In this document: positions 4,499 through 54,292 of the stretch, in pieces
How positions within the stretch are numbered: the stretch's first letter is position 1
Layout of the letters: each line of letters opens with the position of its first letter
Origin: a bacterium
GTDB lineage: Bacteria > UBA10199 > 2-02-FULL-44-16 > DYJF01
DNA length: 64,000 nt
NCBI GenBank assembly: GCA_041739675.1
Contig: JBGSNL010000003.1
Span: forward strand, 5,846-69,845
Reading direction: 5' to 3'
Translations under genes and position numbers: made by a program
Notes under the pieces: generated by a model
The model's input: the letters and a program-made list of their open reading frames with translations, nothing else
Database searches by the model: none
Told to the model about the DNA's origin: nothing

Positions 4499-6577
4499 TT
4501 ATTTTGAAACAAGTTCAGTAACAAGATCCCACGCGGGATTCTCGCGCGCCTTTGCGCATCTTGCAAGGAGTTCTCTAGATGGGCCGTCCTCCATGTAGAT
4601 CCGCAAAAGTTCCCGTAAGATAGGCTCTGCCTCGTCAAAGGAGCGCTCTTCGAATTTCGCGAATGCGCTGGCGAATTCATCCGCGATGCGCCTTGAAGGT
4701 TCGAAATCGGGATCGTCTGCGGGCCCCATCACCTCATAGAGGAGCACCGCATCCGATTTCCCCTTCACACGCACACGATCGAGCGGACGGATGATGACCG
4801 ATTTGTCTATGGCCTTGGCCGTGCGCTCGGATACCATGACGCGCGTACCGTAAAACTTGTTGGCCCCTTCTAGGCGGCTGGCAAGATTGACCGTGTCGCC
4901 GATCGCAGTGTAATCGAAACGCGATTCGGAACCCATGTTGCCCACCACCGCTTCGCCGGTATTTATTCCAACGCGCGTCAGGATCGGCCGTCCGCAGATC
5001 GATTCCCATCTGCTCGTTATCTCATTGCTTGCGTTTTGAATTTCGATGGCCGAACGGACTGCGGCCATTTCATGATCCGAAACATCCAGGGGCGCGTTAA
5101 AGAATGCGATGACCGCGTCACCTTCGTACTTGTCTATCGTGCCGCCGTGGCGGAAGAGTATTTCGTTCATCCGGCTCAAATATTCATTCAGGAATTTCAC
5201 TAGGAGATCGGGATTGAGACGTTCCGATATCGAAGTGAACGATGCGATATCCGTGAATAGCGACGTGATCGTTCTTTTCTCTCCGCCAAGTTTCACGAGC
5301 TCGGGATTTTCGATTAACCGCGCAACGACGGTGGGCGGAACATATTGCGCAAATGTCTGCTTGATCCATTTTCGTTGTCTTCCTTCGGTTATGGCCTTCC
5401 ATCCGATGCCGAGGCCGAAGCCCGTGACCACTCCCAGTCCGGGAATGACAACGGGAACGACAATCGCCCACCTTCTGAAGAACAAGACCGCGCATCCGAT
5501 GAGCGCGCCCAACGTTAAAAGAAAAATGAAGCTCGATTTGAAAGGTGAATAAGAGGAAGCCGCGGCCGCCACTAATATAATGATAAGGGCGGCCAGGATC
5601 CAAAGCTGTCTCGGCTCAAAAGTATAATAAAATTGGGAAGTTAGAAGATTTGAGAGGATGTTTGAGTGGATCTCCACTCCGTTCATCCGGGCGTAGCCGG
5701 TAAATTTTGCGAAATATGGCGTCAGGTAAGCGTCTTGAAGGTCTTCATATGCGGCGCCGACGAGTATGATTTTTCCCTTGAGCCAGTCGGCTGGAACGAG
5801 TCCCTTGGCAAGGAGCTGGGCCGAAAAGATTTTGAACGTGTTTGATGTGCCTCCGATTTTTGAAGGGGGGCCGGCAAATCTTATGAACGTCTCGCCTGTC
5901 GGTTTTGCGAAAGGTGTGAGTTTCAAAGAACCGAGCTGCGGCCAGTTGGAGTCATCGGATATTGTGCCTGCAGCCGACTTACCCGTCGCCTTTTCGAAAA
6001 TGAGCGCTGCAAACGAAGGGGTTTTGCCGAGATCGGTAGAAAAATTGTATTTCGCATAACGCACTACGGAGTCGAACGGATTGAAAGGTAGATCGGCGAG
6101 CCCCAGCCCGTCTATCGTCTCGCGGAAGAGCGGCAACGGAAGATCGGCGCATCCGTCTGTGCCCGATTTTCCCGCGGCGCAACCGCCCATGCGCATCGGC
6201 ATCACTGCATAGACCTGCCCTTGGCTGAAACTTGCGGCAAGCGCGTTATCATAATCGGAATAGGACGGGTCCTTGAGAAAAATGTCATACGCGATGAGTT
6301 TGGGCTCCGCCTCAAGGAGTTTGTTATTGAGTTCGGTCAGGAAATCTCTGGGAACCGGCGAGCGGTAGGGAAGCTCCGCCATCGTTTTCTCGTCCAGCCA
6401 GATCATCACGATGTCGGGAGAGGCTTTTGTTTCAGGAGCGAATGCGATTTGCCGCAAATCAAAAGTCGTGGCCTCAAGACTTTCAATTATCTTCAAATGC
6501 GACAGCCCCCATACAATCCCAAACGCCACAAACGAGATCAGCGCCACGGAGACAAATTGTGCAAAACTTTTTTTCAT
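4499..6577 (-). CDS. Class III adenylate/guanylate cyclase with a periplasmic CHASE2 sensor domain
   Basis: N-terminal TM segment, a long extracytoplasmic region, a TM cluster, then a class III cyclase catalytic core (FTDIASFTSISERL...GDAVIAFFNAP...GINTGEAVVGNMGS). Confidence 0.8.
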   Translation of the reverse strand: MKKSFAQFVSVALISFVAFGIVWGLSHLKIIESLEATTFDLRQIAFAPETKASPDIVMIWLDEKTMAELPYRSPVPRDFLTELNNKLLEAEPKLIAYDIFLKDPSYSDYDNALAASFSQGQVYAVMPMRMGGCAAGKSGTDGCADLPLPLFRETIDGLGLADLPFNPFDSVVRYAKYNFSTDLGKTPSFAALIFEKATGKSAAGTISDDSNWPQLGSLKLTPFAKPTGETFIRFAGPPSKIGGTSNTFKIFSAQLLAKGLVPADWLKGKIILVGAAYEDLQDAYLTPYFAKFTGYARMNGVEIHSNILSNLLTSQFYYTFEPRQLWILAALIIILVAAAASSYSPFKSSFIFLLTLGALIGCAVLFFRRWAIVVPVVIPGLGVVTGFGLGIGWKAITEGRQRKWIKQTFAQYVPPTVVARLIENPELVKLGGEKRTITSLFTDIASFTSISERLNPDLLVKFLNEYLSRMNEILFRHGGTIDKYEGDAVIAFFNAPLDVSDHEMAAVRSAIEIQNASNEITSRWESICGRPILTRVGINTGEAVVGNMGSESRFDYTAIGDTVNLASRLEGANKFYGTRVMVSERTAKAIDKSVIIRPLDRVRVKGKSDAVLLYEVMGPADDPDFEPSRRIADEFASAFAKFEERSFDEAEPILRELLRIYMEDGPSRELLARCAKARENPAWDLVTELVSK

Positions 6578-6601
6578 GATTTCGTGGAATGGCGAGGCGT
6601 A

Positions 6602-6732
6602 GGAGCTGAGGTGTCATGGGGCGTCTCGGAGGCGATTGCATCTATGGATATAATGCTGCAATCGCCGAGAGACGAGGTGCGTTTTTGGGCCGTAACCCAA
6701 AAACGACGCCGTACCCATGACACCTCAGCTCC
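6602..6732. repeat. Nested inverted-repeat element. A perfect 19 bp outer stem encloses two inner hairpins. Candidate structured RNA, terminator or REP/MITE-like element.
   Basis: GGAGCTGAGGTGTCATGGG (6602-6620) is the exact reverse complement of CCCATGACACCTCAGCTCC (6714-6732). Inner hairpin 1: GGCGATTGCA / TGCAATCGCC (6631-6640 / 6657-6666), extended by CGTCTC / GAGACG. Inner hairpin 2: GTTTTTGGG / CCCAAAAAC (6681-6689 / 6696-6704). Confidence 0.6.
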
Positions 6733-6751
6733 GAAAGCCTCGCCCGTCGAT

Positions 6752-7909
6752 TTAAACATCATAACACCCTATCGCGCGCGAGATGACTATGCGCTGTATC
6801 TCGCTTGTGCCTTCGCCTATTTCTAAAAGTTTCTGGTCGCGGTAGAACCTCTCGATTTTGTATTCCTGCATGAGGCCGTAACCGCCGTGGAGCTGGACCG
6901 CGTGGTTCACGACGCGGTACATGACCTCCGAGCAGTAGAGCTTGGCCATCGCAGCCTCTTTTGAATAGGGTTTTTCATTGTCTTTCAGCCAGCAGGCCTT
7001 GTAGAGAAGGGAGCGCGCCGCTTCGATCTCGACTGCGCAGTCGGCCAGTTTGAACGCGTTGACCTGGAAAGTTGAAATGGGTTTTCCGAACTGCTTGCGT
7101 TCTTTCGCGTATTTCATGCCGAGCTCGAACGCACCCTGCGCGCCGCCCAACCCCATTGCCGCGATTGAGAGCCTTCCGGCGTCCAGTGTGTCCAACATCT
7201 GATGAAAACCCTCGTCGCGGTTGCCCAAAATGTGATCTTCCGGAACCTCAACGTTGTCGAAATAGAGTTCCGCGGTGTTTGAGGAGCGCCACACCATTTT
7301 ATTTTTCATAGCGCGTCTTGTGAATCCCTTGGAGTTGGACTCAACAATGATGCAGGAAAGTTCCTTTCTTCCGTCCGATCTCTTTCCGGTTGCCGCCTGA
7401 ACCGTGACGCCGGCAGTTATTTCCGTGGCGGCGTTCGTTATAAAGATTTTCGCGCCGTTGATTATCCATTTTCCGCCTTTGAGCTCAGCCGTGGTTTTTG
7501 TGGCGGCCGCATCGGAGCCGGCATCGGGTTCGGTTAGCCCGAAGCCCCAGAGTTTTTTGCCGGTGCAAAGTTCAGGCAGATATTTTTTCTTCTGTTTGTC
7601 GTTTCCAAATTTATAAAGAGGACCGATGCCAAGGGAATTTCCCGCGGCCACGGTTGCCGCCTGCGACCCGTCGATACGGGCCAGCTCCTCAACGAGGATG
7701 ATATACGAAAGATAGTCCATCCCCTGACCGCCGTATTTGGGATCGACCGTTATGCCGAAAAATCCCATCTCCCCCATTTTTTTAGTGATGTCGTAGGAGA
7801 ACTCCTCTTTGCGGTCTAACTCCTCCACTTTAGGAGCGATCTCCCCCTCAGCAAAATCGCGAACAGATTTTCTCAAAAGTTCCTGCTCCGGTAATAAATT
7901 GAAATCCAT
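6752..7909 (-). CDS. Acyl-CoA dehydrogenase (short/medium-chain type)
   Basis: Full-length ACAD architecture. N-terminus MDFNLLPEQELLRKSVRDFAEGEIAP and C-terminal YRDQKLLEIGEGTSEIQR motif. Confidence 0.85.
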   Translation of the reverse strand: MDFNLLPEQELLRKSVRDFAEGEIAPKVEELDRKEEFSYDITKKMGEMGFFGITVDPKYGGQGMDYLSYIILVEELARIDGSQAATVAAGNSLGIGPLYKFGNDKQKKKYLPELCTGKKLWGFGLTEPDAGSDAAATKTTAELKGGKWIINGAKIFITNAATEITAGVTVQAATGKRSDGRKELSCIIVESNSKGFTRRAMKNKMVWRSSNTAELYFDNVEVPEDHILGNRDEGFHQMLDTLDAGRLSIAAMGLGGAQGAFELGMKYAKERKQFGKPISTFQVNAFKLADCAVEIEAARSLLYKACWLKDNEKPYSKEAAMAKLYCSEVMYRVVNHAVQLHGGYGLMQEYKIERFYRDQKLLEIGEGTSEIQRIVISRAIGCYDV

Positions 7910-7917
7910 TTGCCCTC

Positions 7918-9354
7918 CTATGACGCTTCGAAAATATTTCCCCGCCCCAATATCCAGTTAGGATCGTACTGTTTTTTCCAGTCTTTCATCTTTTGTATGA
8001 CGCTCGCATTGTATTGTATAGGCATCAGGTTCGTGTGGATTTTTCCGATGCCGTGCTCGCCCGCGACCCCACCACCCAACTCCACCGCTTTTCTGCAACA
8101 ACGGATGAGCACATCTTCCGCAAGTTTCCACTCTTCGGGGGTTTTGGCAAATATATTTGTGTGCGGATGGCCCCTGCCAAGATGGGCATAGGCTATATAA
8201 GGAAGGTCGACGGCCGCAGCTTCCTTATAAAAGAAATTCATCATCTGGATGAGCCTTTCAACCGGCACCCACCAATCGCTCCCCACCTTGCCGCCATTAA
8301 CCTGCCAGTATTTTCGCCCCTCCTCGTTCGCCCACTCCGGTATCCGGTGGCGCCAGAGGCGGAAGTTCTCTTTTTGCCTTGGGGTATCGGCGACTATTAT
8401 CGAATCGGCAAATTTTTGAGGGATGGCGGAGGCTATTTTTTTGTACAATTTATCAAGCGCCGCGTCCTTTCCTTTTTCGTACTCTTCCTTGAAATATAGA
8501 AGGGCCTGTGTCCCTTCAGGAAATTGTGCGACACCCTCGGCAGTTTTCATGGCGCTCAAGGCGCCGCGGTCGATATATTCCAGCGTGCGTATCGAAGGCG
8601 TTCTATTTTTTACCATATCCACCAGGCATTCAAGTGCTGCCGTCTCCGAAGGGAAGGGTATGAGGGCAGAAAAAAATTCGGGAGACTTTGGAAGAAGTCG
8701 GAGTGTCACATCTGCGATAAATCCCAGAGTCCCCTCCGATCCTATGAAGAGATCGATCGGGTTTTTCCAGCCGGTGAAATAGCCGCCGCGGTTATGTGCG
8801 TCGGAAGGGATCTCGCCCGGTTCCCGTTTCAGTATCTTCTCGGATCCGTCCGCAAGAAAAACGCGTATGCTCTCGACATAACGCCTTATGGGGCCGTATT
8901 TGAAAGAATCCTCGCCGGTGGCGTTCGTCGAAATGTTGGCCCCGACGCGGCATTCGTCGCGCGAGGTGGGCGCAACCGGATAGAAAAAGCCGGCCTCGTC
9001 TATTTTTTTCTGCGCGTCGGCGACAATCGTTCCCGGGCGGATCGTCGCAGTGGGTTTGTCGTGCGCGGCGTCCACAGCCACTACGCCTTCAAGCTTTTCA
9101 GTGCTGATGAGAAGGCCCTCCATGGCGACGGAGGAACCTGTCATGGAGGTCTGCGACGCGCAAAAAGTTACCGGTATGCGGTTTTCGTTGCAGAAACGGA
9201 GCGCCTCTTTAACTTCCTTTTCGTCGCGCGCGCGCATCACTGCGTCGGGGTCGCCCGTCATCATCGTATCTTCAAGATAGGTCTCGATGCGCTCGTCCCC
9301 TTTGAAGATGAGATCGGGCGACCCTGGAATTCGGCTGAAGATTTTCTTGTCCAT
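7918..9354 (-). CDS. FAD-linked oxidase (GlcD/D-lactate dehydrogenase family, FAD_binding_4)
   Basis: Length and N-terminal FAD-binding-domain pattern (IPVTFCASQTSMTGSSV...) fit the FAD_binding_4 fold. The C-terminal HGIGKIH-type segment fits the FAD-linked oxidase C-terminal domain. Confidence 0.7.
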   Translation of the reverse strand: MDKKIFSRIPGSPDLIFKGDERIETYLEDTMMTGDPDAVMRARDEKEVKEALRFCNENRIPVTFCASQTSMTGSSVAMEGLLISTEKLEGVVAVDAAHDKPTATIRPGTIVADAQKKIDEAGFFYPVAPTSRDECRVGANISTNATGEDSFKYGPIRRYVESIRVFLADGSEKILKREPGEIPSDAHNRGGYFTGWKNPIDLFIGSEGTLGFIADVTLRLLPKSPEFFSALIPFPSETAALECLVDMVKNRTPSIRTLEYIDRGALSAMKTAEGVAQFPEGTQALLYFKEEYEKGKDAALDKLYKKIASAIPQKFADSIIVADTPRQKENFRLWRHRIPEWANEEGRKYWQVNGGKVGSDWWVPVERLIQMMNFFYKEAAAVDLPYIAYAHLGRGHPHTNIFAKTPEEWKLAEDVLIRCCRKAVELGGGVAGEHGIGKIHTNLMPIQYNASVIQKMKDWKKQYDPNWILGRGNIFEAS

Positions 9355-9431
9355 CGTTGAGGGTTTTCTATTTTATATCCCTCTTGTATTCAACTCAAAA
9401 ATGTTGGAAAATCAGCTCATTGGAGGTCTCT

Positions 9432-9839
9432 ATGATGACTCAATTTCTCGTCTTTGGAACCGTGGGGATGGTCGCGGAGGTTATCTTCACGTCCTTCAAG
9501 CGCCTCTTGAGCGACAGGACGTACGAGCTCAAGGGAGAGACCTCGCTTTGGATGTTTCCGGTCTACGGCCTGATCGCATTCATATTTCCGCTTGTAGTCT
9601 ACCGCATCGGCTCCTTCCCTTGGTATATCAGGGGCGCTGTCTATATGGTGATCTTCTTTATCGTGGAATATGTGAGCGGGTTAGTGCTCAGAAAGATGAA
9701 GGTGTGCCCGTGGAACTATCCGGCAAAATATTCGCTGAACGGGCTCATATATTTTCCCTACGCGCCGGTCTGGTTCGCGGCGGGGCTGGGTGTCGAGAGG
9801 ATCTATCCGGTGATCACGGCGCTTGGCAAAGCCATTTGA
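9432..9839 (+). CDS. Small polytopic membrane protein, function unknown
   Basis: Start chosen at MMTQFLVFGTVG with a GGAGG RBS. Four predicted TM helices. The 3' end overlaps the convergent hemY gene. Confidence 0.4.
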   Translation: MMTQFLVFGTVGMVAEVIFTSFKRLLSDRTYELKGETSLWMFPVYGLIAFIFPLVVYRIGSFPWYIRGAVYMVIFFIVEYVSGLVLRKMKVCPWNYPAKYSLNGLIYFPYAPVWFAAGLGVERIYPVITALGKAI

Positions 9840-11160
9840 CCGTCTTTTGGGAGACGCTTTTCGAGTGGGCGATTGTATCGGCAACTGAAATTCCCGTGAA
9901 ATAACTTCCCGTCAGAAAGATGCCCGGCAATTTTTTGATCCATCTTCCGATTTCATTCAACCTCTCCTGATGGCCGATCGTGTACTGCGGTATTGCCTGC
10001 GCGATTCTTGTGATGTTATGGAAGCGCGGCTCGGCGCGCACGTTCAGGGTCTGCTCCAGCCCCTGGCGGACATGGGCCAAAAGCTCGTGGTCGTAGAGGT
10101 CGATGGCGTGGGGATCGGTCGCTCCGCCGATAAAGCACGTCAAAAGGGTTTCGCCGTTGGGGGCCCGGTTCGGAAAGAGCGCAGACGACCAGATCGAACC
10201 CAAGAGCCTTATCTTTTCGCGGCGGGGGATCAGAAAGCCGAAACCTTCAAGATCGCGCGGAATTTCGCTGCGCTTGAACACCGCGTGAACGACAGCGAGA
10301 GAAACATAGGGGATTCCCATGAGCGGCGAGAATATCTCCGGCACATGCGGCATGAGAAGGCGCGACGCCTCATGCGCGGGTACTGCGATGACGACCGCAT
10401 CGCCTGTAATCTCTTCCCCCTGATGATCGGTTGAAACCACCCATTTGCCGTCCTCTGTCTTAACAATCGCTTCGGCCGTGGAGTGTATCCTGATCTCCTT
10501 TTTCATCAGATCGTGGAGCCTCGACGGAAGAGTTTGCATCCCCCAGAGGAAGGATAGAAGAGAGCTCTTTCCAAACGTGCCCTTGAGGTGGCGCATCCCT
10601 TTGAAGACGCTTCCGTAGAGATCCTCAATCTCGGCTATGCGCGGAAAAACACTTTTGATCTCAAGCTGAAAAGGATCGCCGGCGTAGACACCTGAAACGA
10701 AGGGATCGACCAGCGCCTCCAGAAGTTCTTTGCCGGCGCGTCTGGTCACGAACGCCGCGAGCGATTCGCCGTCATTGGTCTGTTTGCGGACGAACGGTTC
10801 GAAAAGTACGCGCAGCTTTCCCTTTCCTGAAAGAAGCGGAGAGAGCAGAAACTGCTTGGGGCCGATGGGAACTTCGTGAAGTTTTTCGCCGCGAAATACG
10901 AAGCGTTTCTTCGATTCGTTTTGCACGAGCTGACGTTCGATATCGAGCTCGCGTGTCAGTTCGAAAATAGAATCCGAAGAGCCCAGAAAAGTGTTGGGGC
11001 CCAGTTCCATGAGGTAGCGGTCGTTTTTCAAGACGGTCTTGATTGCGCCGCCGACCGCATCTTCCCTCTCGAGAAGTGTCACCGCCACTTTCTGTTTTTT
11101 GAGCTCGTGCGCGGCGGTCAAACCTGCGATGCCGCCTCCGATGACGATTACGTGTTTCAT
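9814..11160 (-). CDS. hemY: Protoporphyrinogen oxidase (FAD-dependent, amine-oxidase fold)
   Basis: N-terminal dinucleotide-binding motif VIVIGGGIAGLTAAHEL. Length about 450 aa. Sits in an operon with hemH, hemN and hemE. Confidence 0.75.
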   Translation of the reverse strand: MKHVIVIGGGIAGLTAAHELKKQKVAVTLLEREDAVGGAIKTVLKNDRYLMELGPNTFLGSSDSIFELTRELDIERQLVQNESKKRFVFRGEKLHEVPIGPKQFLLSPLLSGKGKLRVLFEPFVRKQTNDGESLAAFVTRRAGKELLEALVDPFVSGVYAGDPFQLEIKSVFPRIAEIEDLYGSVFKGMRHLKGTFGKSSLLSFLWGMQTLPSRLHDLMKKEIRIHSTAEAIVKTEDGKWVVSTDHQGEEITGDAVVIAVPAHEASRLLMPHVPEIFSPLMGIPYVSLAVVHAVFKRSEIPRDLEGFGFLIPRREKIRLLGSIWSSALFPNRAPNGETLLTCFIGGATDPHAIDLYDHELLAHVRQGLEQTLNVRAEPRFHNITRIAQAIPQYTIGHQERLNEIGRWIKKLPGIFLTGSYFTGISVADTIAHSKSVSQKTVKWLCQAP

Positions 11161-12029
11161 ATTTTGAGACCCGAAAACATTTTAACGATTGTTTCCGAAC
11201 TTCCCGGCGGTGCCGCCCTTCTAACATCGCGCATTCCGGCGCGTTTCGCAGCCGGGATGGCGACACGGTCGATATCAAACAAAGTCTCCACATTGTCAAA
11301 GAGAAAGCTTATGGGGACGACGAGGCAGTCTGAAATCCCTCTGTGGACGAATCTTGAAAGCTCCGTTTCCAACGGGGGGGAGCTCCAGCTTCTTCCCATC
11401 GCGCTCTGGTAGGCGACGCTCGTTGAATTTTTGGATCCCAAAGCCTTCGAGATGAGGCTTGCGGACTCTTCCACCTGTCTTTCGTAGGAATTGTCGCCCC
11501 GGTTGGGCGGCATGGCGTGGGCTGAGAAGATAATGTGCACTGAATCCCTGTTCTCGAATTCGCCCAACGATTTTTTGACCTGATCCGCCCATGCCTCGAT
11601 GAAAAGCGGGTGATCGTAAAACGGCCCCGCCCATCTGATGTGGATATTTCTGAAATATTGTTTTTTAAGTCGAGAAATTTTAGAGGCGATCTCGTCATAC
11701 ATTTCAAGGGTCGCGTGCGGATAGAGCGGCAAGATCCTCACGGTTTCGATTCCCTTTCCTTCAATTTCCGAAAGGGCATCTCCCATGGGAGGTTTTCCAT
11801 ATTGCGCCGCCACGAAAACATTTTCGCCCAATCTTTCCGTGAACCGGCGAATTTCGTCCGAAGCTGCGAATCCCACGGCATCATATTTTTTCAGCGCCCT
11901 GTGCCTTGCAAGGAACGCAACGGGTCTTGAAAAAAAACCCAGACGGGCCGCAAATATGTCGTTGATAAAGGGCCCGACTTCCTTGCGGTTTGCAGGCGAA
12001 CCGAAATGGACTAAAAGTGTCGCTGTCAT
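11157..12029 (-). CDS. hemH: Ferrochelatase
   Basis: Ferrochelatase-like sequence throughout (LLVHFGSP..., ILPLYPH...). Start overlaps the hemN stop (ATGA). Confidence 0.8.
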   Translation of the reverse strand: MTATLLVHFGSPANRKEVGPFINDIFAARLGFFSRPVAFLARHRALKKYDAVGFAASDEIRRFTERLGENVFVAAQYGKPPMGDALSEIEGKGIETVRILPLYPHATLEMYDEIASKISRLKKQYFRNIHIRWAGPFYDHPLFIEAWADQVKKSLGEFENRDSVHIIFSAHAMPPNRGDNSYERQVEESASLISKALGSKNSTSVAYQSAMGRSWSSPPLETELSRFVHRGISDCLVVPISFLFDNVETLFDIDRVAIPAAKRAGMRDVRRAAPPGSSETIVKMFSGLKI

Positions 12030-13426
12030 ACGGTCCTTGAATATCTATTTTCCTGTGCCTTGAGATGAGAATCAAAAAGTGCGGCGATGTTTCTGATAAA
12101 GAGGCGGCCCAGCGGCGTCACCTTGAACTCTTTTTCCGACTCGCTGATAAGGCCGTCGGCAAGGAAATCCTTGGAGGAAACGCCTTTGAAAAAATCGTCA
12201 AACGTGGTGCCGCACACGTGCGCAAACTCCTTCTTGTCTATGCCCTGGGAGCAAAATAGTTTTTGCATGACGAAGCGGCGGTTTACATCCTCCTCTGTGA
12301 GCCTGTATCCGCGGCAGACGGGAAGCCTTCCGCACGAGATTGCCCTGAAATAATCGGATAGGCGTTTCTCGTTTTGCACATAGAGGTTTCCAATTTCGCT
12401 GATCGACGAAACCCCTAGGCCGATGAGGCCGGAAGTCGGTTTTGCAGTGTACCCCTGGAACGTGCGCCTTAGTACGCCGTTTTTTTGAGCCTTTGCGAGC
12501 TCGTCCGTCTGTTTTGCAAAATGATCGAGGCCTATGAATTTGTATCCGGCCTTCAGGAACTTCTCTATGGCGGACATGAACATCGAAATCTTTATCTGCG
12601 GCGCGGGAAGCGTGGCCGGGTCTATTTTTCGCTGATGCGGAGCCGCCCATGGGACATAGGCGAAGTTGAAAAGGGAGATGCGGTCAGGGCCCAGACGCAC
12701 GACGTCCGAAATCGTCTTTTGAAAATTATCGCGGTTCTGAAGGGGGAGCCCGTAGCACAAATCTATGTTAACACTCTGGAAATTTGCCTTTCGCGCGTCC
12801 AAGATAAGAGCTTCGATGCAATGAACGTCTTGCACCCTGCCGCACGCTTCTTGAACGTCCTGATTCGTATCCTGCACGCCGAAGCTTATGCGGTTGAACC
12901 CGAGTTCAGAGGCCAGCCTGATCTTTTCGCCGGTTGTCTGACGCGGATCAGCCTCGATTCCTATCTCCGCGCCGGTCTCCAGAGAAAAGCACGAAAGGGT
13001 CGCCTTCATCAGGCGCTCCATCTGCTTTTCGGTCAGATACGTCGGAGAGCCGCCCCCCCAATGAAGGCTGGAGAGCGTCACAATCGGGGAATTCAAATTA
13101 TTGCGGATGATATCCATCTCGGAGATCAAGTTGTCGACGTATCGGTCTATGATATCGATTTTCGGTGTCGCTATGGCGTTGCACGCGCAAAACGTGCAGC
13201 GTGAGCGGCAGAACGGCAGATGCATATATAATGAAAGGGCGTTGGCGCACGTGTGCATAAGCGCATAAGTGAAATCGAAAAGGCCGACGTCGCCGTTCCA
13301 CGCCGGGGCGGGTGGATACGAGGTGTAGCGGGGGAGCGTCCGGTCGTACTTTTCGATGAGATAGGGCGTCAGCTCCACCCTGCACCCGTCGATGACCGCC
13401 GCCATGTCTTTATCTATATTTTGCAT
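12026..13426 (-). CDS. hemN: Oxygen-independent coproporphyrinogen III oxidase (radical SAM)
   Basis: Radical SAM CxxxCxxC (CRSRCTFCAC). HemN-like length and C-terminal HemN_C-like region. Confidence 0.8.
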   Translation of the reverse strand: MQNIDKDMAAVIDGCRVELTPYLIEKYDRTLPRYTSYPPAPAWNGDVGLFDFTYALMHTCANALSLYMHLPFCRSRCTFCACNAIATPKIDIIDRYVDNLISEMDIIRNNLNSPIVTLSSLHWGGGSPTYLTEKQMERLMKATLSCFSLETGAEIGIEADPRQTTGEKIRLASELGFNRISFGVQDTNQDVQEACGRVQDVHCIEALILDARKANFQSVNIDLCYGLPLQNRDNFQKTISDVVRLGPDRISLFNFAYVPWAAPHQRKIDPATLPAPQIKISMFMSAIEKFLKAGYKFIGLDHFAKQTDELAKAQKNGVLRRTFQGYTAKPTSGLIGLGVSSISEIGNLYVQNEKRLSDYFRAISCGRLPVCRGYRLTEEDVNRRFVMQKLFCSQGIDKKEFAHVCGTTFDDFFKGVSSKDFLADGLISESEKEFKVTPLGRLFIRNIAALFDSHLKAQENRYSRTV

Positions 13427-14441
13427 TTTTCACCGTGTCCACAAAAGCCGCAACGCTCGCAACGGGGGTTTTGGGAAGAACCCCGTGGCCGAGATTGGCG
13501 ATGTATCCGGATTCGTTGCCTGCGCCTTCAAGCATCCGGAGCGTCTCGCGTTCGACGGTTGAAGGGGACCTCAAAAGCGTTTCGGGATTCAAGTTTCCCT
13601 GGATCGCCGCGCTATTTTTTGCGCGCCCGATCGCCTCTTTGATATCGATGTCGGAGCCTACGCTCAAAACGTCCGCCCCCGATGATATCATCATGTCAAA
13701 GAGCTCAGAGCTGTTCCTGACATAAAGAATCGCAACGGCGCCCGTTTTTTTGATCTCCGAAACTATTTTTTTGACGTACGGCAGCGCGAATTTTTCATAT
13801 TCGAAAGGGGAAAGAAGCCCGCCCCACGTATCGAATATCTGTATGGCGTCGCTGCCTGCGCTGACCTGCTGGATGGCAAGCGAAGAAATAGTCGGTGTTA
13901 TTTTTTCAAGAAGAGCAGAAACAATTTCAGGCGATTCGCGCAGAAGTGAAATTGCGGAATCGAAACTGCCGCTCCCCCCTTCGATCATATAAGCTGCGAG
14001 GGTCCATGGCGCCCCTACAAATCCCAGAAGTGCCGTTTCCTCTTTGAGCTCGTGGCGGAGATTTTGGGTCGCTTCAAGAAGATGGGGCAGCGAAATGCGC
14101 ACGTTGGGGGAGGACAGGTTTTTTACATCGGCTGCCGTTGTAATTTTTGAATCGAATCTCGGGCCTACATTCTCTTCAAAACGGAGCTTCATCCCCATCG
14201 CATTGAGGGGAAGCAGGATGTCGGAAAAAACGATGACCGCATCCATCCCGAAGCGGCGCCACGGTTGCAGCGACACTTCGAAGATGAGGTCGGGCCTCCT
14301 GCACATCGTGAGGAAATCGTATTTTTCGCGGAGCTCCTGATATTCAGGAAGATATCTTCCTGCCTGGCGCATCAGCCAGACCGGCCTCCGGTCGACTGTT
14401 AACCGCCGGCACGCATTAACAAAGCGCTCGCGGGAGTTCAT
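13410..14441 (-). CDS. hemE: Uroporphyrinogen decarboxylase
   Basis: Classic HemE N-terminus PVWLMRQAGRYLPEY. Confidence 0.9.
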   Translation of the reverse strand: MNSRERFVNACRRLTVDRRPVWLMRQAGRYLPEYQELREKYDFLTMCRRPDLIFEVSLQPWRRFGMDAVIVFSDILLPLNAMGMKLRFEENVGPRFDSKITTAADVKNLSSPNVRISLPHLLEATQNLRHELKEETALLGFVGAPWTLAAYMIEGGSGSFDSAISLLRESPEIVSALLEKITPTISSLAIQQVSAGSDAIQIFDTWGGLLSPFEYEKFALPYVKKIVSEIKKTGAVAILYVRNSSELFDMMISSGADVLSVGSDIDIKEAIGRAKNSAAIQGNLNPETLLRSPSTVERETLRMLEGAGNESGYIANLGHGVLPKTPVASVAAFVDTVKNAKYR

Positions 14442-14477
14442 GAGCCGACAACATCAGAGTCGGAGGCAATTTTCAAG

Positions 14478-16676
14478 CTATTTGCGCCGACGCTTTGCGG
14501 CAAACAGCCCGATCGGCACTATAATCGCCAAAACCGACAGAATGCTCGTTGCAGGGGGCACGGGAACGACCATGCTTCCGCAACCCTTTCCTCCGTCACT
14601 TCCTCCCCCGCAGGTGCTTCCCGTGAAGCAGGATGTACCGGCGGTTATCTGCTGCATTGCGGAAAGGGCATCGACCTTTCCGTATCCGTATTGGAAGTCG
14701 GGAACAGTCGTCTGATCCGGCGCCGCCGCGGCGGTCGTCTGAAGCGTGCTTTTGATCTGGTTCGCGGTGAGGCAATTGTTTTTCTCAAGCATCAGGGCCG
14801 CGATGCCTGCAACGTGAGGAGATGCCATGGAACTCCCCTGCAGTTTGAAGTGAGTTTCGTTGCCCAAGATCGCATCGGGAACGCCGGTGACACCGCTTGC
14901 CAGTGTGGATATGATTGGCTCGCCAGGGGCCGATACGTCAGGTTTTACCCTTGGGCTCACAATTTCACCCGTGGGGCCGAGGCTTGAAAAGACCGAGGCG
15001 TTGCCGACCGTCCCGCCAAGGGCCCCTATGGAGGGATCGTAGACGTCCTGATTGTGCACGTTGCCGTTGATGTCGGTCCACGTGCCGCGGCCCATGTAAG
15101 AACCCACCGTGATAACGCTTGATGCCGTTCCGGGGATCGTCGTTGTCCTGTCGGAGTCGCCGTCCGCCAGATTGTAGCCGTCGGCGCCCGTCACGGACAA
15201 GGTGTCGATGTTCTTGTAAAAGTCGTTGAGCGACGTGTAATCCGGATAGAGCCACATCTCCGCCCTGCAGGAGAGCGACGGCACGCGGATTATGATATCG
15301 AAATCATATGCTGCGGCGATGAGTTGCGCCCAGCTCGATCCAGAGGCCGGCCCTATTCCAATCAGCGCTTCGGGACGGCTGTTTTGAGGATTGCTGTTAA
15401 TTGTTACAACATCGATATTTGCCTTACTGTCTGCGGCCGTTGTGCTGGTGTCGGCAGTATAATTGATGGGGCTTGTTTTAACCTTGTACTGAGACACATC
15501 GGATTCAAGGCCCTGCACATATGCCTTCACCTCGATGGTGGAGTTGCGGCATTCGGTTGTATTGTCGAGCCAGACGTCGACTATGGAGACTCCGTATGCA
15601 GAGAGATCGGTGTCTCTAAGCGTCATTCTCCAGCCGGTCGGAACGCCCGCGCTGACGTTGACGGAGGCGTGAATTCCGCCGAAGGTCGAAGACCCGGGAT
15701 CGCCGGGGACAAAGTTCTCGTTTCCGGCGGCGTCGACAACCACGCGTCCGGCCAACTCATTGCCGCTGCCGTCCAATATGGCCTCGTTCAAACCCTGTTC
15801 AAGAAGTGAAGTGTTATCGTGGGCGCCGAGCGATGTGCCTAGAGAAATATTTATGGCGCAGGGCAGATCGAAATCATCGGCTTGCGTGAAAATGGCGTCC
15901 ACCCCTTCCAGCACCGTCGTCGAAAATGTGCCGCTGGCGTCGGTGTCGGTGCCCGGCCTTAGAAAGGCGAACGCGATGAACGCCTGCGGTGCGACGCCCG
16001 TGTAGGGAGAATCCTGGCTGGCGGCGATTCCAGTGACATGAGTTCCGTGGCCGACGCTGCCGTCGCTACCGCCCTTGCTGACGGAACAAGTGCCGTCGTC
16101 GATTTCAGATTTCGAGCATTCAACCGATCCTCCCGCCGAAGTCATCTGGTCAAGGTAGCAGATGCGCGTTGTGCCGTCCGCGCCGTCGAAATCGGTGTTT
16201 TCCCAATCAAGGGCGCTGTCTACTATACCCACCATCACTCCCGTGCCGTTGTAGGCCCGGTCAAGGCCCGTGCCCGCCTGAACAAGATCGACTTTTGTGA
16301 ACTCGCGCGCCTTGTTCATTTTTACCGTCATGGGTTTTGCGGCTTCTATGTACGAAACCTCATTGAGGTCGGATATTTTTTCCATCGCGTCGAGCGGAAT
16401 CGAAACAGACATTATATGACCGATGACTGCGCGTGTCTGGCCGCCGGCCTCTTTTATGGCAGCGCTTGTCGCATCGGGGTCGGAGCTCTTGAGAAGGCAG
16501 CTTATGAACTCGCGGTCCGTTTCAACGGAGATCGCCTTGCCGAGCATCATCTTTCCCGTTTGAGGATGGGCAATGGTCATTTTCAGAAGGCCGTCCAGTT
16601 TCGCCTGGTCTGCACCGGCGGAAACCGAAACGGATGCCGCCACAAGAACGATCACGGCCGCGAAAATCTTTTTCAT
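14478..16676 (-). CDS. Secreted subtilisin-like serine protease (S8) with a MYXO-CTERM/PEP-CTERM-class C-terminal sorting tail
   Basis: Signal peptide MKKIFAAVIVLVAASVSVSA. Catalytic His (GHGTHVTGIAAS) and Ser (GSSMASPHVAGIAALM). C-terminus GGKGCGS-x10-ILSVLAIIVPIGLFAA-KRRRK is a Gly/Cys motif, a TM helix and a basic cluster. Confidence 0.8.
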   Translation of the reverse strand: MKKIFAAVIVLVAASVSVSAGADQAKLDGLLKMTIAHPQTGKMMLGKAISVETDREFISCLLKSSDPDATSAAIKEAGGQTRAVIGHIMSVSIPLDAMEKISDLNEVSYIEAAKPMTVKMNKAREFTKVDLVQAGTGLDRAYNGTGVMVGIVDSALDWENTDFDGADGTTRICYLDQMTSAGGSVECSKSEIDDGTCSVSKGGSDGSVGHGTHVTGIAASQDSPYTGVAPQAFIAFAFLRPGTDTDASGTFSTTVLEGVDAIFTQADDFDLPCAINISLGTSLGAHDNTSLLEQGLNEAILDGSGNELAGRVVVDAAGNENFVPGDPGSSTFGGIHASVNVSAGVPTGWRMTLRDTDLSAYGVSIVDVWLDNTTECRNSTIEVKAYVQGLESDVSQYKVKTSPINYTADTSTTAADSKANIDVVTINSNPQNSRPEALIGIGPASGSSWAQLIAAAYDFDIIIRVPSLSCRAEMWLYPDYTSLNDFYKNIDTLSVTGADGYNLADGDSDRTTTIPGTASSVITVGSYMGRGTWTDINGNVHNQDVYDPSIGALGGTVGNASVFSSLGPTGEIVSPRVKPDVSAPGEPIISTLASGVTGVPDAILGNETHFKLQGSSMASPHVAGIAALMLEKNNCLTANQIKSTLQTTAAAAPDQTTVPDFQYGYGKVDALSAMQQITAGTSCFTGSTCGGGSDGGKGCGSMVVPVPPATSILSVLAIIVPIGLFAAKRRRK

Positions 16677-16688: not shown

Positions 16689-17096
16689 TTATTTTTTGAT
16701 CGACATCGGCACTGCCAGCTCCATGATCTTCACGAACGGAAGGGCCGCAACCTGGGGAACGTCTCCGGCGGCAATGCTTCCGGTTGATATTTTTCCGATG
16801 ACGCTTCGACGGTGAAAACCCGCCTCGTCCAGGGATTTCTTTTCAGCGTTGGTTGGTTTGCCCTGTGTTTTCAGAAGGCACTCGAACGATTTTTCAAAAT
16901 CCTTTTTTGTCATCGCGTTTTCCCACGCCGACCTGAATCTGCCGTCGAGCTTTTGCCATCCCTCTGAAGATTTGAAGATTTCGATCTGAGAGACGGGTTT
17001 CGGCGCACTCTCTTTTGAATTTTTTCCGGCGCATGAAGTGAACACGGGCACTGTGATAAAAAGTGCAGTCAAAATAACAAGTTTGGTTGTCTTCAT
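16689..17096 (-). CDS. Small lipoprotein, unknown function
   Basis: MKTTKLVILTALFITVPVFTSC is a signal peptide with a lipobox. Confidence 0.5.
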   Translation of the reverse strand: MKTTKLVILTALFITVPVFTSCAGKNSKESAPKPVSQIEIFKSSEGWQKLDGRFRSAWENAMTKKDFEKSFECLLKTQGKPTNAEKKSLDEAGFHRRSVIGKISTGSIAAGDVPQVAALPFVKIMELAVPMSIKK

Positions 17097-35155: not shown

Positions 35156-37753
35156 TTAGTGCGTTATTATCATCGGACTCAATGGCCTTGTCATGACTCT
35201 GAATGAGCTCGAAGGTTCAGTCGGCGTTTCCTCCGATGTCGGCGGAGCGGCCCCAACATCCACGCCACCCATGGTAGAACCGTCTCCGACTGCAGAGACT
35301 TTGTAGGTCACCTTAGCACCGGAAACAGTTGCTGCGATGGCGACGCTTCTCACTTCGCCCAGGTCAACCGCTTCGGGTGAATTGAGTACCGACCAGAACT
35401 CTCCGCCGTTGCGTGTGACCGCCATGCCAGTCGCTGTTCCTGCGAGAACGACCGGTCCGGTCTCATCCTGATTGTAAGCGGGATCGATTGCCAGTGATAG
35501 AACTGGGCCGGCAAGAGTCCCGGTTGTTTTCGTCCAGTTTGCGCTATCTTTATTGCTCACGTATACGCCGTCATCGGTTCCTGCGAAGAGCATGTCCGAC
35601 TTGGCGTCATAGGCGATGCTGTACACCGGTTGCGTACCGTCAAGCGCTCCACCTACAAACTGTGCCCAGCCTATTCCATTGCCGCTTTCGTTGACGTAGA
35701 CTCCACTGTTGGTTGCGGCGAAGATTTTTGTTCCGACTTCTTCCAAGTCATGCGCAACCTTTGAACCGTCTCTCGAATAGACGCCGTTCGTATCTTGATT
35801 TCTTGCCCCGATCCACGGTGTTCGCACTCTGTCCGCCGCGTGCTTGGCGGCATCCTCGGTAACGAGTATTCCGCGGTCATAGGCAACGATCAGGCGGCCG
35901 TCTTCTTTTGCTATCATGTCGCAAATCTGCCCCATCGAAACGATGTCGGCTGAGCTTGGTGCGTTGGAGATGCCGGTCTGTGTCTTGCCCGCGCACGTCT
36001 TATGGCTGCCCGAATATCCATCTCTCCTTGCGTAGAAGAAGATGTCGAACGGTTTCCAATCGCTGTCTTTTTCTCCTCCATTAGTTGTATACATGATGAG
36101 ACCGGTTGTGCCTACGTAAACAACGTTCGGATCGCCCTTTTTCACCGCGATGGCGTTCACGGGATAGGTTTTCACATAATTTGAGAAGAAATTGTTGTTC
36201 TGCCAGAGACCTCCGAGTTCAAAGGCATTCTTTATCGGATCCTCTATGCCGATGCCGTCCGCAAGTTCCTTGCTATCGGCAAAATTGCTCAGGCGATATA
36301 CTGAAATTTCACCGAATGCTTCGCGTTTCACGCCGTAATAGAAACGGCTTGCATCATTGGGATCGGCTATGACGCGTGTCACGGGCAATGCGTCACCAAC
36401 ACCGCCATGGAAGAACTGATGGCTCATCATCGGGATGATGCTCTGGATAGGATGTTGTGTCTCGGGAGTAGAAATTCCGATACGATTAATGACAATCGGG
36501 ATTCCCGACAAATCCGGGACCCTTGCTTTCACCTTTGTTCCTGCGACGAGATCTGCCTTATTAACGGCCTTACCGCCAACCGTGAGAGAGTCGATTCCGC
36601 TCACCGTTGCGGCGTCAGCCTGCACTTCAATCTCAACTTCTTCGGAGACGAAAGCCCACGGGCCGGCCTTGATGTCGAGGGCTGTCGTGTTGCCGCTCTG
36701 AAGGGCTACGACGACTGCGGCGCGGGCGCTATTCTCGCCCACCTGAGCGATCATGTCGAAGCGTGTATCAGAGGTCAGCGTGCAGAGGCTGTCCTGCATT
36801 CCGCCGGTCAAAACCTGTGCGGTCGGGAGCGCGGGCTCGCACGTCACGGGCTTGTCTGCTGTTACAGTCACCTGTGCACTTGCGGGGATCGCTTCATAAT
36901 GGACCGTTACTTGATCGGTGAAATTTGGAACCGTCACCAACGCTTCTTGTCCGTTGGCAGTGATCGTCGCTCTGATGTTGGATGCGTTGACCTGAATCGT
37001 GACGTCGTCGGTCTTTTCCTGACCGTCGGCGCATATGGCCTCAACAGTGTATTTCGTCGTCGCGGAAGGCGTCACCGTAGCTTCGCCTGACGTCGGGAAC
37101 GTATCGGCAACCGGCGTTCCGTCAGCTGCCACAACAGTTACCTGCGTCACGTCCGGACTTGCCGTCCATGTGATCGTCGTCGGGTCGCCGGCATTTACAG
37201 GAGTATCGCCTGCGCCGGATACGATGTCTACCGAACATTCGGATGCCGCAACTACAGCTACTGTAATAGTAGCCTGCGAGGTCACCGGTCCTGTCGGTAC
37301 AGGGTTCTCGGAAGGTGTTGGAACCGGCGGTTCTCCCGGAAGCGGTATCTGACCGGACTTGGACAGTTTGGATATGACGACTATCGCAGCCGCGCTTTCA
37401 TCGGCCGCCGCAAAAGTCTTGGATGCGGTGAGGATAAAGTCCGTCGTGTTCGTTATGCCATCCACCTGTGTGGAGCCCGAAAGCTCTTCAAAGGGGCCGG
37501 CATGGAACTGGAACACACCCTCCGGTGCTGATGCGACCTCTATCGAGTCCGCGTCCTCCACTTCCCAGTAGATCGTCGTGGATCCGCCAAGCGGAACCTG
37601 AGGCGGATCGGCCCTGAAGACCTTGATCACCGGTGGAGGCGGCGTGATATTCGCGCTCTGGCCGAGCTGAAGCTCGCCGTCGGAGCACGCGGCTGCGAAG
37701 GCCGCAATCGCGACCACCGCTATCATCCGCCATATTTTCGTTGTGTTCATCAT
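35156..37753 (-). CDS. Large lipoprotein with Ig-like domains and BNR/Asp-box (Ycf48/sortilin-like) beta-propeller repeats
   Basis: MMNTTKIWRMIAVVAIAAFAAAC is a lipoprotein signal. Repeated S-x-D-x-G-x-x-W-type Asp-box motifs (TNGGEKDSDW, SNKDSANWTK, TRNGGEFWSV). Thr/Val-rich Ig-like repeats. Confidence 0.6.
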   Translation of the reverse strand: MMNTTKIWRMIAVVAIAAFAAACSDGELQLGQSANITPPPPVIKVFRADPPQVPLGGSTTIYWEVEDADSIEVASAPEGVFQFHAGPFEELSGSTQVDGITNTTDFILTASKTFAAADESAAAIVVISKLSKSGQIPLPGEPPVPTPSENPVPTGPVTSQATITVAVVAASECSVDIVSGAGDTPVNAGDPTTITWTASPDVTQVTVVAADGTPVADTFPTSGEATVTPSATTKYTVEAICADGQEKTDDVTIQVNASNIRATITANGQEALVTVPNFTDQVTVHYEAIPASAQVTVTADKPVTCEPALPTAQVLTGGMQDSLCTLTSDTRFDMIAQVGENSARAAVVVALQSGNTTALDIKAGPWAFVSEEVEIEVQADAATVSGIDSLTVGGKAVNKADLVAGTKVKARVPDLSGIPIVINRIGISTPETQHPIQSIIPMMSHQFFHGGVGDALPVTRVIADPNDASRFYYGVKREAFGEISVYRLSNFADSKELADGIGIEDPIKNAFELGGLWQNNNFFSNYVKTYPVNAIAVKKGDPNVVYVGTTGLIMYTTNGGEKDSDWKPFDIFFYARRDGYSGSHKTCAGKTQTGISNAPSSADIVSMGQICDMIAKEDGRLIVAYDRGILVTEDAAKHAADRVRTPWIGARNQDTNGVYSRDGSKVAHDLEEVGTKIFAATNSGVYVNESGNGIGWAQFVGGALDGTQPVYSIAYDAKSDMLFAGTDDGVYVSNKDSANWTKTTGTLAGPVLSLAIDPAYNQDETGPVVLAGTATGMAVTRNGGEFWSVLNSPEAVDLGEVRSVAIAATVSGAKVTYKVSAVGDGSTMGGVDVGAAPPTSEETPTEPSSSFRVMTRPLSPMIITH

Positions 37754-39769: not shown

Positions 39770-39882
39770 ATAATTATCTAGGTATGCATGCGATTCCGTC
39801 ATCCGGTGCTCCATAAGCCATGTCAGCGGGTCCGCCGATTTCAGTCGGGCGTACTCTGATCTCTCTGCACGCCGCTTGTGTC
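39770..39882. repeat. DNA-level repeat, copy 1 (3' end of gene C plus its 3' UTR). Near-identical to 42242-42350.
   Basis: Shares the exact runs GTCAGCGGGTCCGCCGATTTCAGT and GGGCGTACTCTGATCTCTCTGCACGCC and overall high identity with the second copy. Confidence 0.7.
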
Positions 39883-42241: not shown

Positions 42242-42350
42242 ATAAATTATCTGGGTACACAAGCAATGCCGTCATTTGGCTCTCCATAAGCTCTGTCAGC
42301 GGGTCCGCCGATTTCAGTTGGGCGTACTCTGATCTCTCTGCACGCCGGAG
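42242..42350. repeat. DNA-level repeat, copy 2 (3' end of gene B plus its 3' UTR). Near-identical to 39770-39882.
   Basis: Same exact runs as copy 1. Conservation extends past the stop codon into the AATTAT-rich 3' flank. Confidence 0.7.
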
Positions 42351-44529: not shown

Positions 44530-44726
44530 GTTGCCTCCTAATCAAGGTCGTTGTTTTAATTGACCTCAACCCCTTATCGCGGTTTTTCAAAAATAGTTGC
44601 TTGGTTTTTTAAGGTACCCTGAGAGGCCCGTTTATCAATAAGAATAGGGGTATGGCAAGCCGGAAAAGAGCTTTATTGCTTATTGGCGGAAAGTCTGCTA
44701 GGGAGCCCCCAACAATCGGAGGTAAA

Positions 44727-46127: not shown

Positions 46128-46130
46128 TCG

Positions 46131-49781: not shown

Positions 49782-49791
49782 AGGAGGGGTC

Positions 49792-53401: not shown

Positions 53402-54292
53402 TTACTTGAGCTTCCTGCGTATCGCCAGAGGGGCAATAGAGATGGCGAGAATCAGAATAGAGACCACATTTGACGCGTGACCCGTGTTGACGATAGTCGA
53501 GCTGCATCCGCCGCCGGTGGAGGCGCTGCCGGTATCGCATGCATCGCCTATTCCGTCGCCGTCCGTATCGATCTGGTCCGCATTCTCTTCAGCAACGCAG
53601 TTATCGACGTCATCAAAAAGTCCGTCTGCGTCTGTGTCGGGGCAGCCCCACTCATTGACCGCGGTGCTGGCAGGTGTATCCACGCAAAGATCGTCAACGT
53701 CGGCTACTGTGTCGCCGTCCGTGTCTATCGGGAGAGAACCGGTGAGATCGGGGTCGTCAGCAATTATGGTGCATCCGACTTCGTCCACTTCGGTATCTGC
53801 GGGGGTATCGCCGCATTCGTCGTCGCCATTACGGATTCCGTCGCCATCGTTATCAAGAGTCGGCCATGCAGAAACCTCTGGTCTCAATGGATAGGCGGAA
53901 AGTATCTCAATTGGGCAACCGTGACTATCGACCGTGGTTCCCGGTACCGTGTATAGACAATCATCTTCACTGTCCAAAACGTCATCGCCGTCGTCGTCGT
54001 TATCGAAGAGATCCCTTATTCCGTCATCATCGTAATCACCGAACATAGATGGAGGGCAACCGTTTCTGGCGGGGTTGGTATTGGCTATACCCTGCTTATC
54101 AGGGCAAGCGTCTACGCTGTTTGCGATGCCATCGCTATCAGTGTCGGAAGAAGGCAGCGTTCTGCTCACCCCGACATCTATTTCATAGCCACTGAGTGCT
54201 ATGTCGTCACTCGCCGGTTCCGCCATCACTTTGGCGCCGACCAGCAAGCCGGCAACGACTATCAGGGCAAACACAAAAAACTTTGACTTCAT
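53402..54292 (-). CDS. Secreted thrombospondin-type-3-like Ca-binding repeat protein with a MYXO-CTERM/PEP-CTERM-class C-terminal tail
   Basis: Start chosen at MKSKFFVFALIVVAGLLVGAKVMA with a GGGAGGAAC RBS. Repeated DxDxDGxxDxxD motifs. C-terminus GGGCSS-x10-VVSILILAISIAPLAI-RRKLK. Confidence 0.65.
   Translation of the reverse strand: MKSKFFVFALIVVAGLLVGAKVMAEPASDDIALSGYEIDVGVSRTLPSSDTDSDGIANSVDACPDKQGIANTNPARNGCPPSMFGDYDDDGIRDLFDNDDDGDDVLDSEDDCLYTVPGTTVDSHGCPIEILSAYPLRPEVSAWPTLDNDGDGIRNGDDECGDTPADTEVDEVGCTIIADDPDLTGSLPIDTDGDTVADVDDLCVDTPASTAVNEWGCPDTDADGLFDDVDNCVAEENADQIDTDGDGIGDACDTGSASTGGGCSSTIVNTGHASNVVSILILAISIAPLAIRRKLK

Follow-up and report, generated by a model that had tools for sequence, protein, structure and literature searches.

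The extreme C-termini of two proteins encoded in the bacterial DNA analyzed here (64 kb of contig JBGSNL010000003.1, referred to as the window), a subtilisin-family (S8) serine peptidase and an unrelated thrombospondin type 3 (TSP3)-repeat protein, share a three-part tail built around a single cysteine. Most likely this tail is related to the myxobacterial MYXO-CTERM surface-sorting tag, from which it has diverged, and has so far not been catalogued. The assignment is supported at the level of class: the tails belong with the Cys-containing tripartite sorting signals, not with MYXO-CTERM in the strict sense and not with PEP-CTERM, and they represent a lineage-specific variant that is recognized by no current profile hidden Markov model (HMM). 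The comparisons below establish the architecture, conservation and modularity of the tail, as well as its evolutionary continuity with verified MYXO-CTERM domains. By analogy with Myxococcus xanthus, we hold it to be moderately probable that both tails act as C-terminal sorting domains, with lipidation of the Cys, cleavage by a CPBP-family protease and transfer of the proteins to the cell surface.

Both proteins begin with a predicted Sec-type signal peptide, as a preliminary description of this DNA had proposed and as inspection of the translations bears out; the S8 protein reads MKKIFAAVIVLVAASVSVSA followed by GADQ, and the TSP3 protein MKSKFFVFALIVVAGLLVGAKVMA followed by EPAS. At the other end, the S8 protein closes with GGSDGGKG-C-GS, MVVPVPPATS, ILSVLAIIVPIGLFAA and KRRRK before the stop codon, and the TSP3 protein with STGGG-C-SS, TIVNTGHASN, VVSILILAISIAPLAI and RRKLK. 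In each tail a Gly-rich run leads to a single Cys, a spacer of 10 residues follows, and a hydrophobic helix 16 residues long precedes the basic cluster; the distance from Cys to basic cluster is 28 residues in both, in agreement with the earlier account of a spacer of about ten residues, a hydrophobic helix and a basic end. That account had also offered the consensus G-G-x-G-C-[GS]-S, which the S8 tail (GGKGCGS) fits exactly, whereas the TSP3 tail, T-G-G-G-C-S-S, departs from it at one residue. The segment on which it had centered, 14478–14640, comprises the final 53 codons of the S8 gene plus the stop codon. Among the window's open reading frames (ORFs) with 100 codons or more, just these two combine a Gly-rich/Cys motif, a transmembrane (TM) segment and a basic C-terminus.

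Tails that are short, compositionally simple and 29% identical to each other might in principle resemble one another by chance, as two low-complexity C-termini with no common function. However, an HMM built from 26 S8 tails, with the TSP3 tail excluded, gave the TSP3 C-terminus 25.4 bits, the next window ORF reaching 5.5 bits; applied to the tail alone, it gave the real TSP3 tail 30.1 bits, and 9.1 bits was the highest value among 1000 shuffled versions. Because no shuffle exceeded 9.1 bits, the likeness of the two tails is not compositional. The equal spacing of the two tails, the invariance of the Cys in dozens of orthologues and the terminal position of all database matches argue in the same direction, and the chance reading, to which we assign next to no probability, is effectively refuted. 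The database matches come from a search of 1.84 billion (1.84e9) representative proteins with a profile of 27 tails, which returned 11 matches at E ≤ 1e-3, each ending at or a few residues short of the protein's C-terminus; as passengers they have S8 proteases, two TSP3 proteins from outside the profile (P0127 and P0129) and an unrelated protein of 617 amino acids (P0131).

Among the S8 homologues the tail is both common and regular. A Gly/Ser-rich run with Cys, TM helix and basic end is found in 86 of the 120 homologues listed, among which the most frequent Cys-to-basic distance is 28; the preliminary description had allowed that only the two window proteins might carry the tail, and across the lineage it is clearly not confined to them. 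The tail Cys, C699, forms an invariant column in the full-length alignment of 37 orthologues (38–58% identity), as do the catalytic residues D153, H210 and S616, and the Cys is likewise invariant in an alignment of 32 tails. In S8 tails of the window's own kind (type A), the Pro residues at positions Cys+6 and Cys+22 are each at least 90% conserved. The Gly-rich motif with C-G-[GS]-x-[IVL]-[VA]-P is confined to the protease clade; the helix contains a Pro in its C-terminal half in all TSP3-type tails, in at least 90% of protease-clade tails and in both window tails. When the proteases are ordered by neighbor joining, tail type tracks clade, with type A, the window's included, forming one group and type B (C-[SA]-L...) the others, and the two types coexist within genomes (JAJZQH01, loci L008, L018 and L039; CAXXGI01, loci L011 and L036). 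Type A and type B have in common the Cys together with its spacing, a helix and a basic C-terminal end.

The protease itself matches Pfam PF00082 with an E-value of 1.8e-34 (119.8 bits against a cutoff of 21.8), and the database labels of the window protein and its relatives say merely "S8 family serine peptidase" or "hypothetical". In an AlphaFold model (mean predicted local distance difference test score, or pLDDT, 84.8; predicted template modeling score, or pTM, 0.85) the passenger is folded with confidence, residues 692–711, Cys included, are disordered with pLDDT below 50, and a single C-terminal helix spans residues 711–731.

The TSP3 protein shows the same tail on a different passenger. 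Its score against PF02412, 23.5 bits, lies just below the cutoff of 25, and PF02412 proteins dominate the list of its homologues. It also weakly matches NF047638, the family of the M. xanthus MYXO-CTERM adhesin MtsC (E 1.5e-12), with 47 bits against a cutoff of 350, a score by which it is not an MtsC equivalog. The 296-residue start at 54292, as given in the preliminary description, is preferable to the 349-residue longest ORF because a Shine-Dalgarno sequence, GGGAGGA, lies 5 nt upstream of that ATG. No tandem repeats were found in the gene at the DNA level. The tail is the best-conserved segment of the protein, with 51–61% identity against 42–46% across the aligned passenger residues. Cys tails occur on 14 TSP3-repeat homologues. 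In the closest two the helix matches that of the window, Pro included (LI-x-AIS-xx-PL-x-IRR); the remaining, more distant homologues resemble canonical MYXO-CTERM by eye, and one of them carries Myxococcales in its source name. A metagenome scan with three TSP3-type tails returned TSP3 orthologues only, one of which keeps the tail on a syntenic 46-kb contig (L082) that carries no sortase.

Table 1. Positions in the window of the two passenger genes, their predicted signal peptides and tail parts, and one adjoining gene
Feature	Positions	Strand	Residues and sequence	Basis or remark
S8 (subtilisin-family) serine peptidase gene, passenger 1	14478..16676	minus	732 residues	ORF
S8 predicted Sec-type signal peptide	16614..16676	minus	1–21, MKKIFAAVIVLVAASVSVSAG	inspection of translation; model helix 2–16
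S8 tail part 1, Gly-rich motif with invariant Cys	14574..14606	minus	691–701, GGSDGGKG-C699-GS	alignments; pLDDT <50
S8 tail spacer, Pro at Cys+6	14544..14573	minus	702–711, MVVPVPPATS	tail alignments
S8 tail part 2, hydrophobic TM helix, conserved internal Pro	14496..14543	minus	712–727, ILSVLAIIVPIGLFAA	alignments; model helix 711–731
S8 tail part 3, basic cluster	14481..14495	minus	KRRRK	translation; stop codon 14478–14480 next
TSP3-repeat protein gene, passenger 2	53402..54292	minus	296 residues; Asp-rich	ORF
TSP3 predicted Sec-type signal peptide	54221..54292	minus	1–24, MKSKFFVFALIVVAGLLVGAKVMA	inspection of translation
TSP3 tail part 1	53498..53518	minus	TGGG-C263-SS	Cys kept in orthologues P0129 and P0229 and in metagenome locus L082
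TSP3 tail spacer, no Pro at Cys+6	53468..53497	minus	TIVNTGHASN	translation; orthologue comparison
TSP3 tail part 2, hydrophobic helix, internal Pro	53420..53467	minus	VVSILILAISIAPLAI	core L-I-x-A-I-S-x-x-P-L-x-I-R-R invariant in three orthologues
TSP3 tail part 3, basic cluster	53405..53419	minus	RRKLK	stop codon 53402–53404 next
Lipoprotein gene (context only, not part of the signal)	16689..17096	minus	135 residues; lipobox ...FTSC	immediately upstream of S8 gene

Cys-containing tripartite tags are each paired with an intramembrane glutamic protease of the CPBP (Rce1-like) family, designated MrtX/C/P, MrtJ, MrtS or MrtA, and lineage-specific models are often needed to detect them (Haft 2023, bioRxiv 10.1101/2023.06.07.544157). 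MrtX cleaves the MYXO-CTERM of TraA in a Cys-dependent manner and is required for surface localization, which itself depends on the type II secretion system (Guo, Haft and Wall 2025, PMC11980579). The closest connection of the window tails to this system runs through their own orthologues. Two distant S8 orthologues end in GCGC-type tails that lie at the same position as the window tail and pass the curated 20-bit cutoff of the MYXO-CTERM model TIGR03901.2, namely P0112 from the myxobacterium Pendulispora rubella (25.0 bits) and P0115 (32.4 bits); these served as positive controls. A further S8 homologue, P0102, carries the JGI name "MYXO-CTERM domain-containing protein", and in a profile-profile alignment of window-type with canonical-looking tails the G-x-G-C motif is aligned with a probability of 93.9%.

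Several observations weigh against placing the tails in this system. Neither TIGR03901.2 nor TIGR03382 nor any other NCBIfam CTERM model matches either tail or either whole protein at E ≤ 10, and type-A relatives reach at most 14.3 bits on TIGR03901.2, on the helix and Arg part only, or do not match at all. In its published description MYXO-CTERM has a TM helix free of Pro and of charged residues, with which the conserved helix Pro found here is at odds. Known clients are few, with two in the 64-kb window and one extra tail-bearing ORF in the flanks of the lineage loci (well under 1.2 Mb), and at the strict E-value the passengers fall into only three families. Finally, neither the window, screened by motif and TM content across all ORFs and by Pfam scans of multi-TM ORFs, nor about 1.2 Mb around the S8 genes of relatives, screened by motif, TM and phmmer, yielded a gene for a CPBP, rhomboid or exosortase protein. 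The preliminary description had likened the tails to the MYXO-CTERM class; a conserved, modular, tripartite tail with Cys stands, as do orthologues with MYXO-CTERM proper, whereas membership by the defining model does not, given the missing TIGR03901.2 match where the controls pass and the Pro in the helix.

That no cognate sorting enzyme lies in the window had already been noted, and none has come to light among the motif- and TM-screened ORFs or the Pfam-scanned multi-TM ORFs. The Pfam scans covered every multi-TM ORF of the window except a presumed ABC permease at 1123–2121, and the ORFs concerned encode a CHASE2-cyclase, an FMN-binding/4Fe-4S membrane protein, MscS, PAP2, DUF116 and MMPL proteins. 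Among 78 genome loci with the S8 gene, the sole conserved neighbors are a propeptide-like lipoprotein, a secreted protein of about 880 residues, hemE, a CHASE2 cyclase and ABC-2/GldG-like genes. Multi-TM ORFs in the relatives' loci that were considered as sorting enzymes were identified instead as SecF, ABC-2, ATP synthase a, ZIP and Na/Pi transporters, and an ORF with the motif EEGLFRG in an Anaerolineae locus proved spurious. A protein search seeded with two MrtX peptides (Haft 2023) joined by X's gave no candidates, and a search of the literature for a link between MYXO-CTERM and Bdellovibrio found nothing relevant. Housekeeping myxosortases are not expected beside their clients (Haft 2023, bioRxiv 10.1101/2023.06.07.544157); the absence of an enzyme near the clients fits that expectation, a fit that is not in itself evidence that the enzyme exists.

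If the tails work as M. xanthus would suggest, both proteins would be exported through Sec by way of their N-terminal signal peptides and the C-terminal helix would then transiently retain them in the inner membrane, its Arg/Lys cluster on the cytoplasmic side. The invariant Cys, which would lie where a flexible Gly-rich linker ends, some 10 residues out from the membrane, would be lipidated, after which a housekeeping CPBP-family (Rce1-like) "myxosortase" encoded elsewhere in the genome would cut just past the Cys and free the helix. The lipid-anchored protease and the adhesin-like protein would then reach the cell surface, probably through the type II secretion system.

A simpler arrangement can be envisioned in which the tails are uncleaved C-terminal anchors that tether the proteins to the inner membrane facing the periplasm, with the Cys serving otherwise, for instance in a disulfide with a Cys of the SCFTGSTC region. 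One terminal helix with a cytoplasmic basic cluster suffices to anchor a protein, screening of the window turned up no processing enzyme, and in the S8 family two more conserved Cys residues do lie closely upstream of the tail, in that region. However, the TSP3 tail keeps its Cys all the same without an upstream pair of the S8 type, the Cys lies in a disordered Gly-rich linker, and verified MYXO-CTERM domains occupy the same position in P0112 and P0115. A further counterweight comes from orthologues that have lost the helix. About 20 of the 120 S8 orthologues listed end 3–14 residues past the invariant Cys, with no helix or Arg cluster (P0018, P0022, P0023, P0028, P0039, P0040, P0045, P0053, P0054, P0059, P0065, P0076, P0078, P0088, P0092, P0093, P0097, P0101, P0103 and P0111), in endings such as GGCSLIRR, GCSLIR and NCTLIPY before the stop codon. 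Because all of them keep the Cys, it is hard to uphold the helix as the functional part, and we consider the uncleaved-anchor arrangement unlikely.

The short forms occupy at least five separate positions in the S8 tree, and the Cys they retain is nearly always followed by [ST]-L-[IVL]. They look like either a helix-less, CaaX-like version of the tag or the outcome of repeated loss of the anchor with retention of the Cys. Recoding or frameshifting as the origin of the GCSLIR tails was considered and rejected: at L080 (5100–5450) the stop codon is genuine and is followed by a ribosome-binding site and an 81-residue gene, and other downstream frames encode no helix. As a separate observation, in relatives with type-B or short tails the 3′ end of the S8 gene is often adjoined or overlapped by a small conserved gene of about 76–81 residues, whose product starts with MQPNRLE(R)xW...DLIVE or with MQENLLDRYW; it lies near or downstream of S8 in L009, L014, L034, L038, L080, L081 and L082.

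The Pro residues of the S8 spacer raise the question of whether these are exosortase signals of the PEP-CTERM family, with V-P-V in place of P-E-P and an EpsH-type exosortase as the enzyme. In the S8 clade the Pro at Cys+6 is at least 90% conserved within [IVL]-[VA]-P-[VA], and the helix and Arg cluster follow a few residues on, a spacing like that of PEP-CTERM. The TSP3 tail and its orthologues nonetheless lack a Pro at Cys+6 (TIVNTG, MLVNTG, LIENAS); because of this, V-P-V is not a shared recognition element, which weakens the exosortase case. The invariant element is instead the Cys. Moreover, the PEP motif is absent from both window tails, neither tail matches TIGR02595 or a PEP-variant model at E ≤ 10, and PEP-family matches among ten related tails are far below cutoff and fall on one type-B tail only. 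With no exosortase-like ORF in the window or the related loci, we judge such processing very unlikely, and the PEP-CTERM/exosortase half of the label given in the preliminary description is not supported.

Secreted serine proteases are typical clients of the GlyGly-CTERM system, in which rhombosortase processes proteins such as the Vibrio cholerae protease VesB, and this counts in favor of a GlyGly-CTERM signal here, as does the Gly-rich run that precedes the helix. In a GlyGly-CTERM signal, however, the GG abuts the helix, and in the window tails about 12 residues separate the Gly run from the helix and it is a Cys that is conserved. There is no TIGR03501 match to the window tails and no rhomboid-like ORF in the window or related loci, and processing by rhombosortase seems to us highly improbable.

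Returning to sorting by a Cys-dependent CPBP protease, a more specific version deserves mention, as a speculative possibility that we rate well below the general one. The tail may constitute a fifth, separately evolving Cys-containing tripartite tag, of an uncultured Bdellovibrio-like ("delta-proteobacterial") lineage outside the Myxococcota, served by its own Mrt-family CPBP sortase that would be tuned to a Pro-kinked helix, and the helix-less orthologues (G-C-S-L-I-R and stop) may be true CaaX-like substrates of the same enzyme. If so, the long bacterial tags would be linked mechanistically to eukaryotic CaaX processing. Cys-containing sorting tags and CPBP "myxosortases" were defined only in 2023–2025, and MYXO-CTERM has been characterized as myxobacterium-specific. 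If another, uncultured lineage has a conserved variant that HMMs do not see, this surface-anchoring pathway would extend further than is known, and current annotation pipelines would be overlooking such clients. Such a variant would also supply natural variation on sortase recognition, in the form of the helix Pro, the spacer motif and the helix-less CaaX-like ends. For the organism itself, the prediction is cell-surface display of a subtilase and of an adhesin-like protein that binds calcium.

The host appears, from record titles and synteny, to be an uncultured Bdellovibrio-like lineage. The GTDB species representatives do not include the window's genome, and the best S8 match among them is 53% identical; looking for exact copies of the proteins gave a single 2.4-kb Logan contig for S8 and none for MnmG. 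Window positions 4499–16676 are collinear over eight genes (50–92% amino acid identity) with L027 (DYJF01000033.1, titled "Bdellovibrio sp. isolate FI88_57_8"), and positions 44652–63213 are collinear with L082 (JGI metagenome contig Ga0315291_10000641) over TSP3, mnmG, deoxyhypusine synthase, MMPL, RNR, PAP2 and DUF116. The next relative is titled "uncultured Pseudobdellovibrionaceae", and more distant ones are titled as Deltaproteobacteria, Pseudomonadota or Myxococcales metagenome-assembled genomes.

Two genes found next to the protease gene in relatives are of interest in their own right. The 135-residue lipoprotein gene of Table 1 keeps its place immediately upstream of S8 in 17 related loci. 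Its product is 30% identical to S8 residues 26–119, the N-terminal propeptide region (E 2e-7); it is a stand-alone paralogue of that region and possibly acts as a propeptide-like inhibitor or chaperone. A secreted protein of about 865 residues with no Pfam match is encoded at 35156–37753 on the minus strand, about 18 kb from the window S8 gene, and 16 related loci have a homologue just upstream of S8. Elsewhere in the window, the minus-strand ORFs 39774–41204 and 42247–44529 are mostly unrelated, yet they share an 88%-identical extreme C-terminus of 32 residues, ACREIRVRPTEIGGPAD[MR]AYG[AE]P[DN]DGIAC[IV]PR before the stop, which contains two Cys residues and occurs just twice in the window. 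By its sequence, this end is a second shared C-terminal module in the window; ORF 42247–44529 also has a weak match to the DUF4215 "Myxococcus Cys-rich repeat".

Comparison with other known sorting systems shows partial likenesses to each. GlyGly-CTERM, as in VesB, resembles the window tails in its client, a secreted serine protease, in the combination of a Gly-rich motif with a TM helix and a basic tail, and in its expected outcome, surface retention after transport through a type II secretion system; it differs in having no Cys and in relying on another enzyme family. The processing of CaaX proteins by Rce1 and MmRce1, the eukaryotic and archaeal CPBP enzymes, provides a mechanistic template in that cleavage occurs just past a lipid-modified Cys, and the roughly 20 S8 orthologues with short ends (e.g., G-C-S-L-I-R) look CaaX-like. 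CaaX proteins, however, are cytosolic, prenylated and without a TM helix, whereas the window proteins have a predicted Sec signal peptide and a TM helix. JDVT-CTERM, processed by MrtJ and found sporadically in beta- and gamma-proteobacteria, shares a single invariant Cys, a conserved Pro downstream of it and a similar length. It is distinguished by a near-invariant D-P nine residues past the Cys, by one client per genome and by an adjacent protease gene, whereas the window tails have no DP, at least two clients and no adjoining CPBP gene in the window and 49 lineage loci. Synerg-CTERM (TIGR04564; MrtS; Synergistota) shares the Ser/Gly-rich cluster leading to a single invariant Cys, the Pro in the TM helix and the Arg cluster, but it is shorter and lacks a spacer between Cys and helix, where the window tails have 10 residues, and TIGR04564 does not match them.

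From MYXO-CTERM the tails differ in several respects. Window-type tails have a single Cys and never GCGC, whereas MYXO-CTERM frequently has a second Cys; they carry a Pro in the helix and, in the S8 clade, C-G-[GS]-x-[IVL]-[VA]-P, and they do not pass the defining HMM. The host, moreover, is apparently Bdellovibrio-like, judging by the titles of syntenic relatives, whereas MYXO-CTERM is known from Myxococcota and Bradymonadales. The likenesses extend over the whole design: a tripartite extreme C-terminus of about 34–40 residues on proteins with a Sec-type signal peptide, in which a Gly/Ser-rich run leads to an invariant Cys, a short spacer, a single TM helix and an end rich in Arg; unrelated clients within one lineage, at least two of them here, with S8 proteases and TSP3-repeat proteins represented (compare MtsC); and no gene for a sorting enzyme beside the clients.

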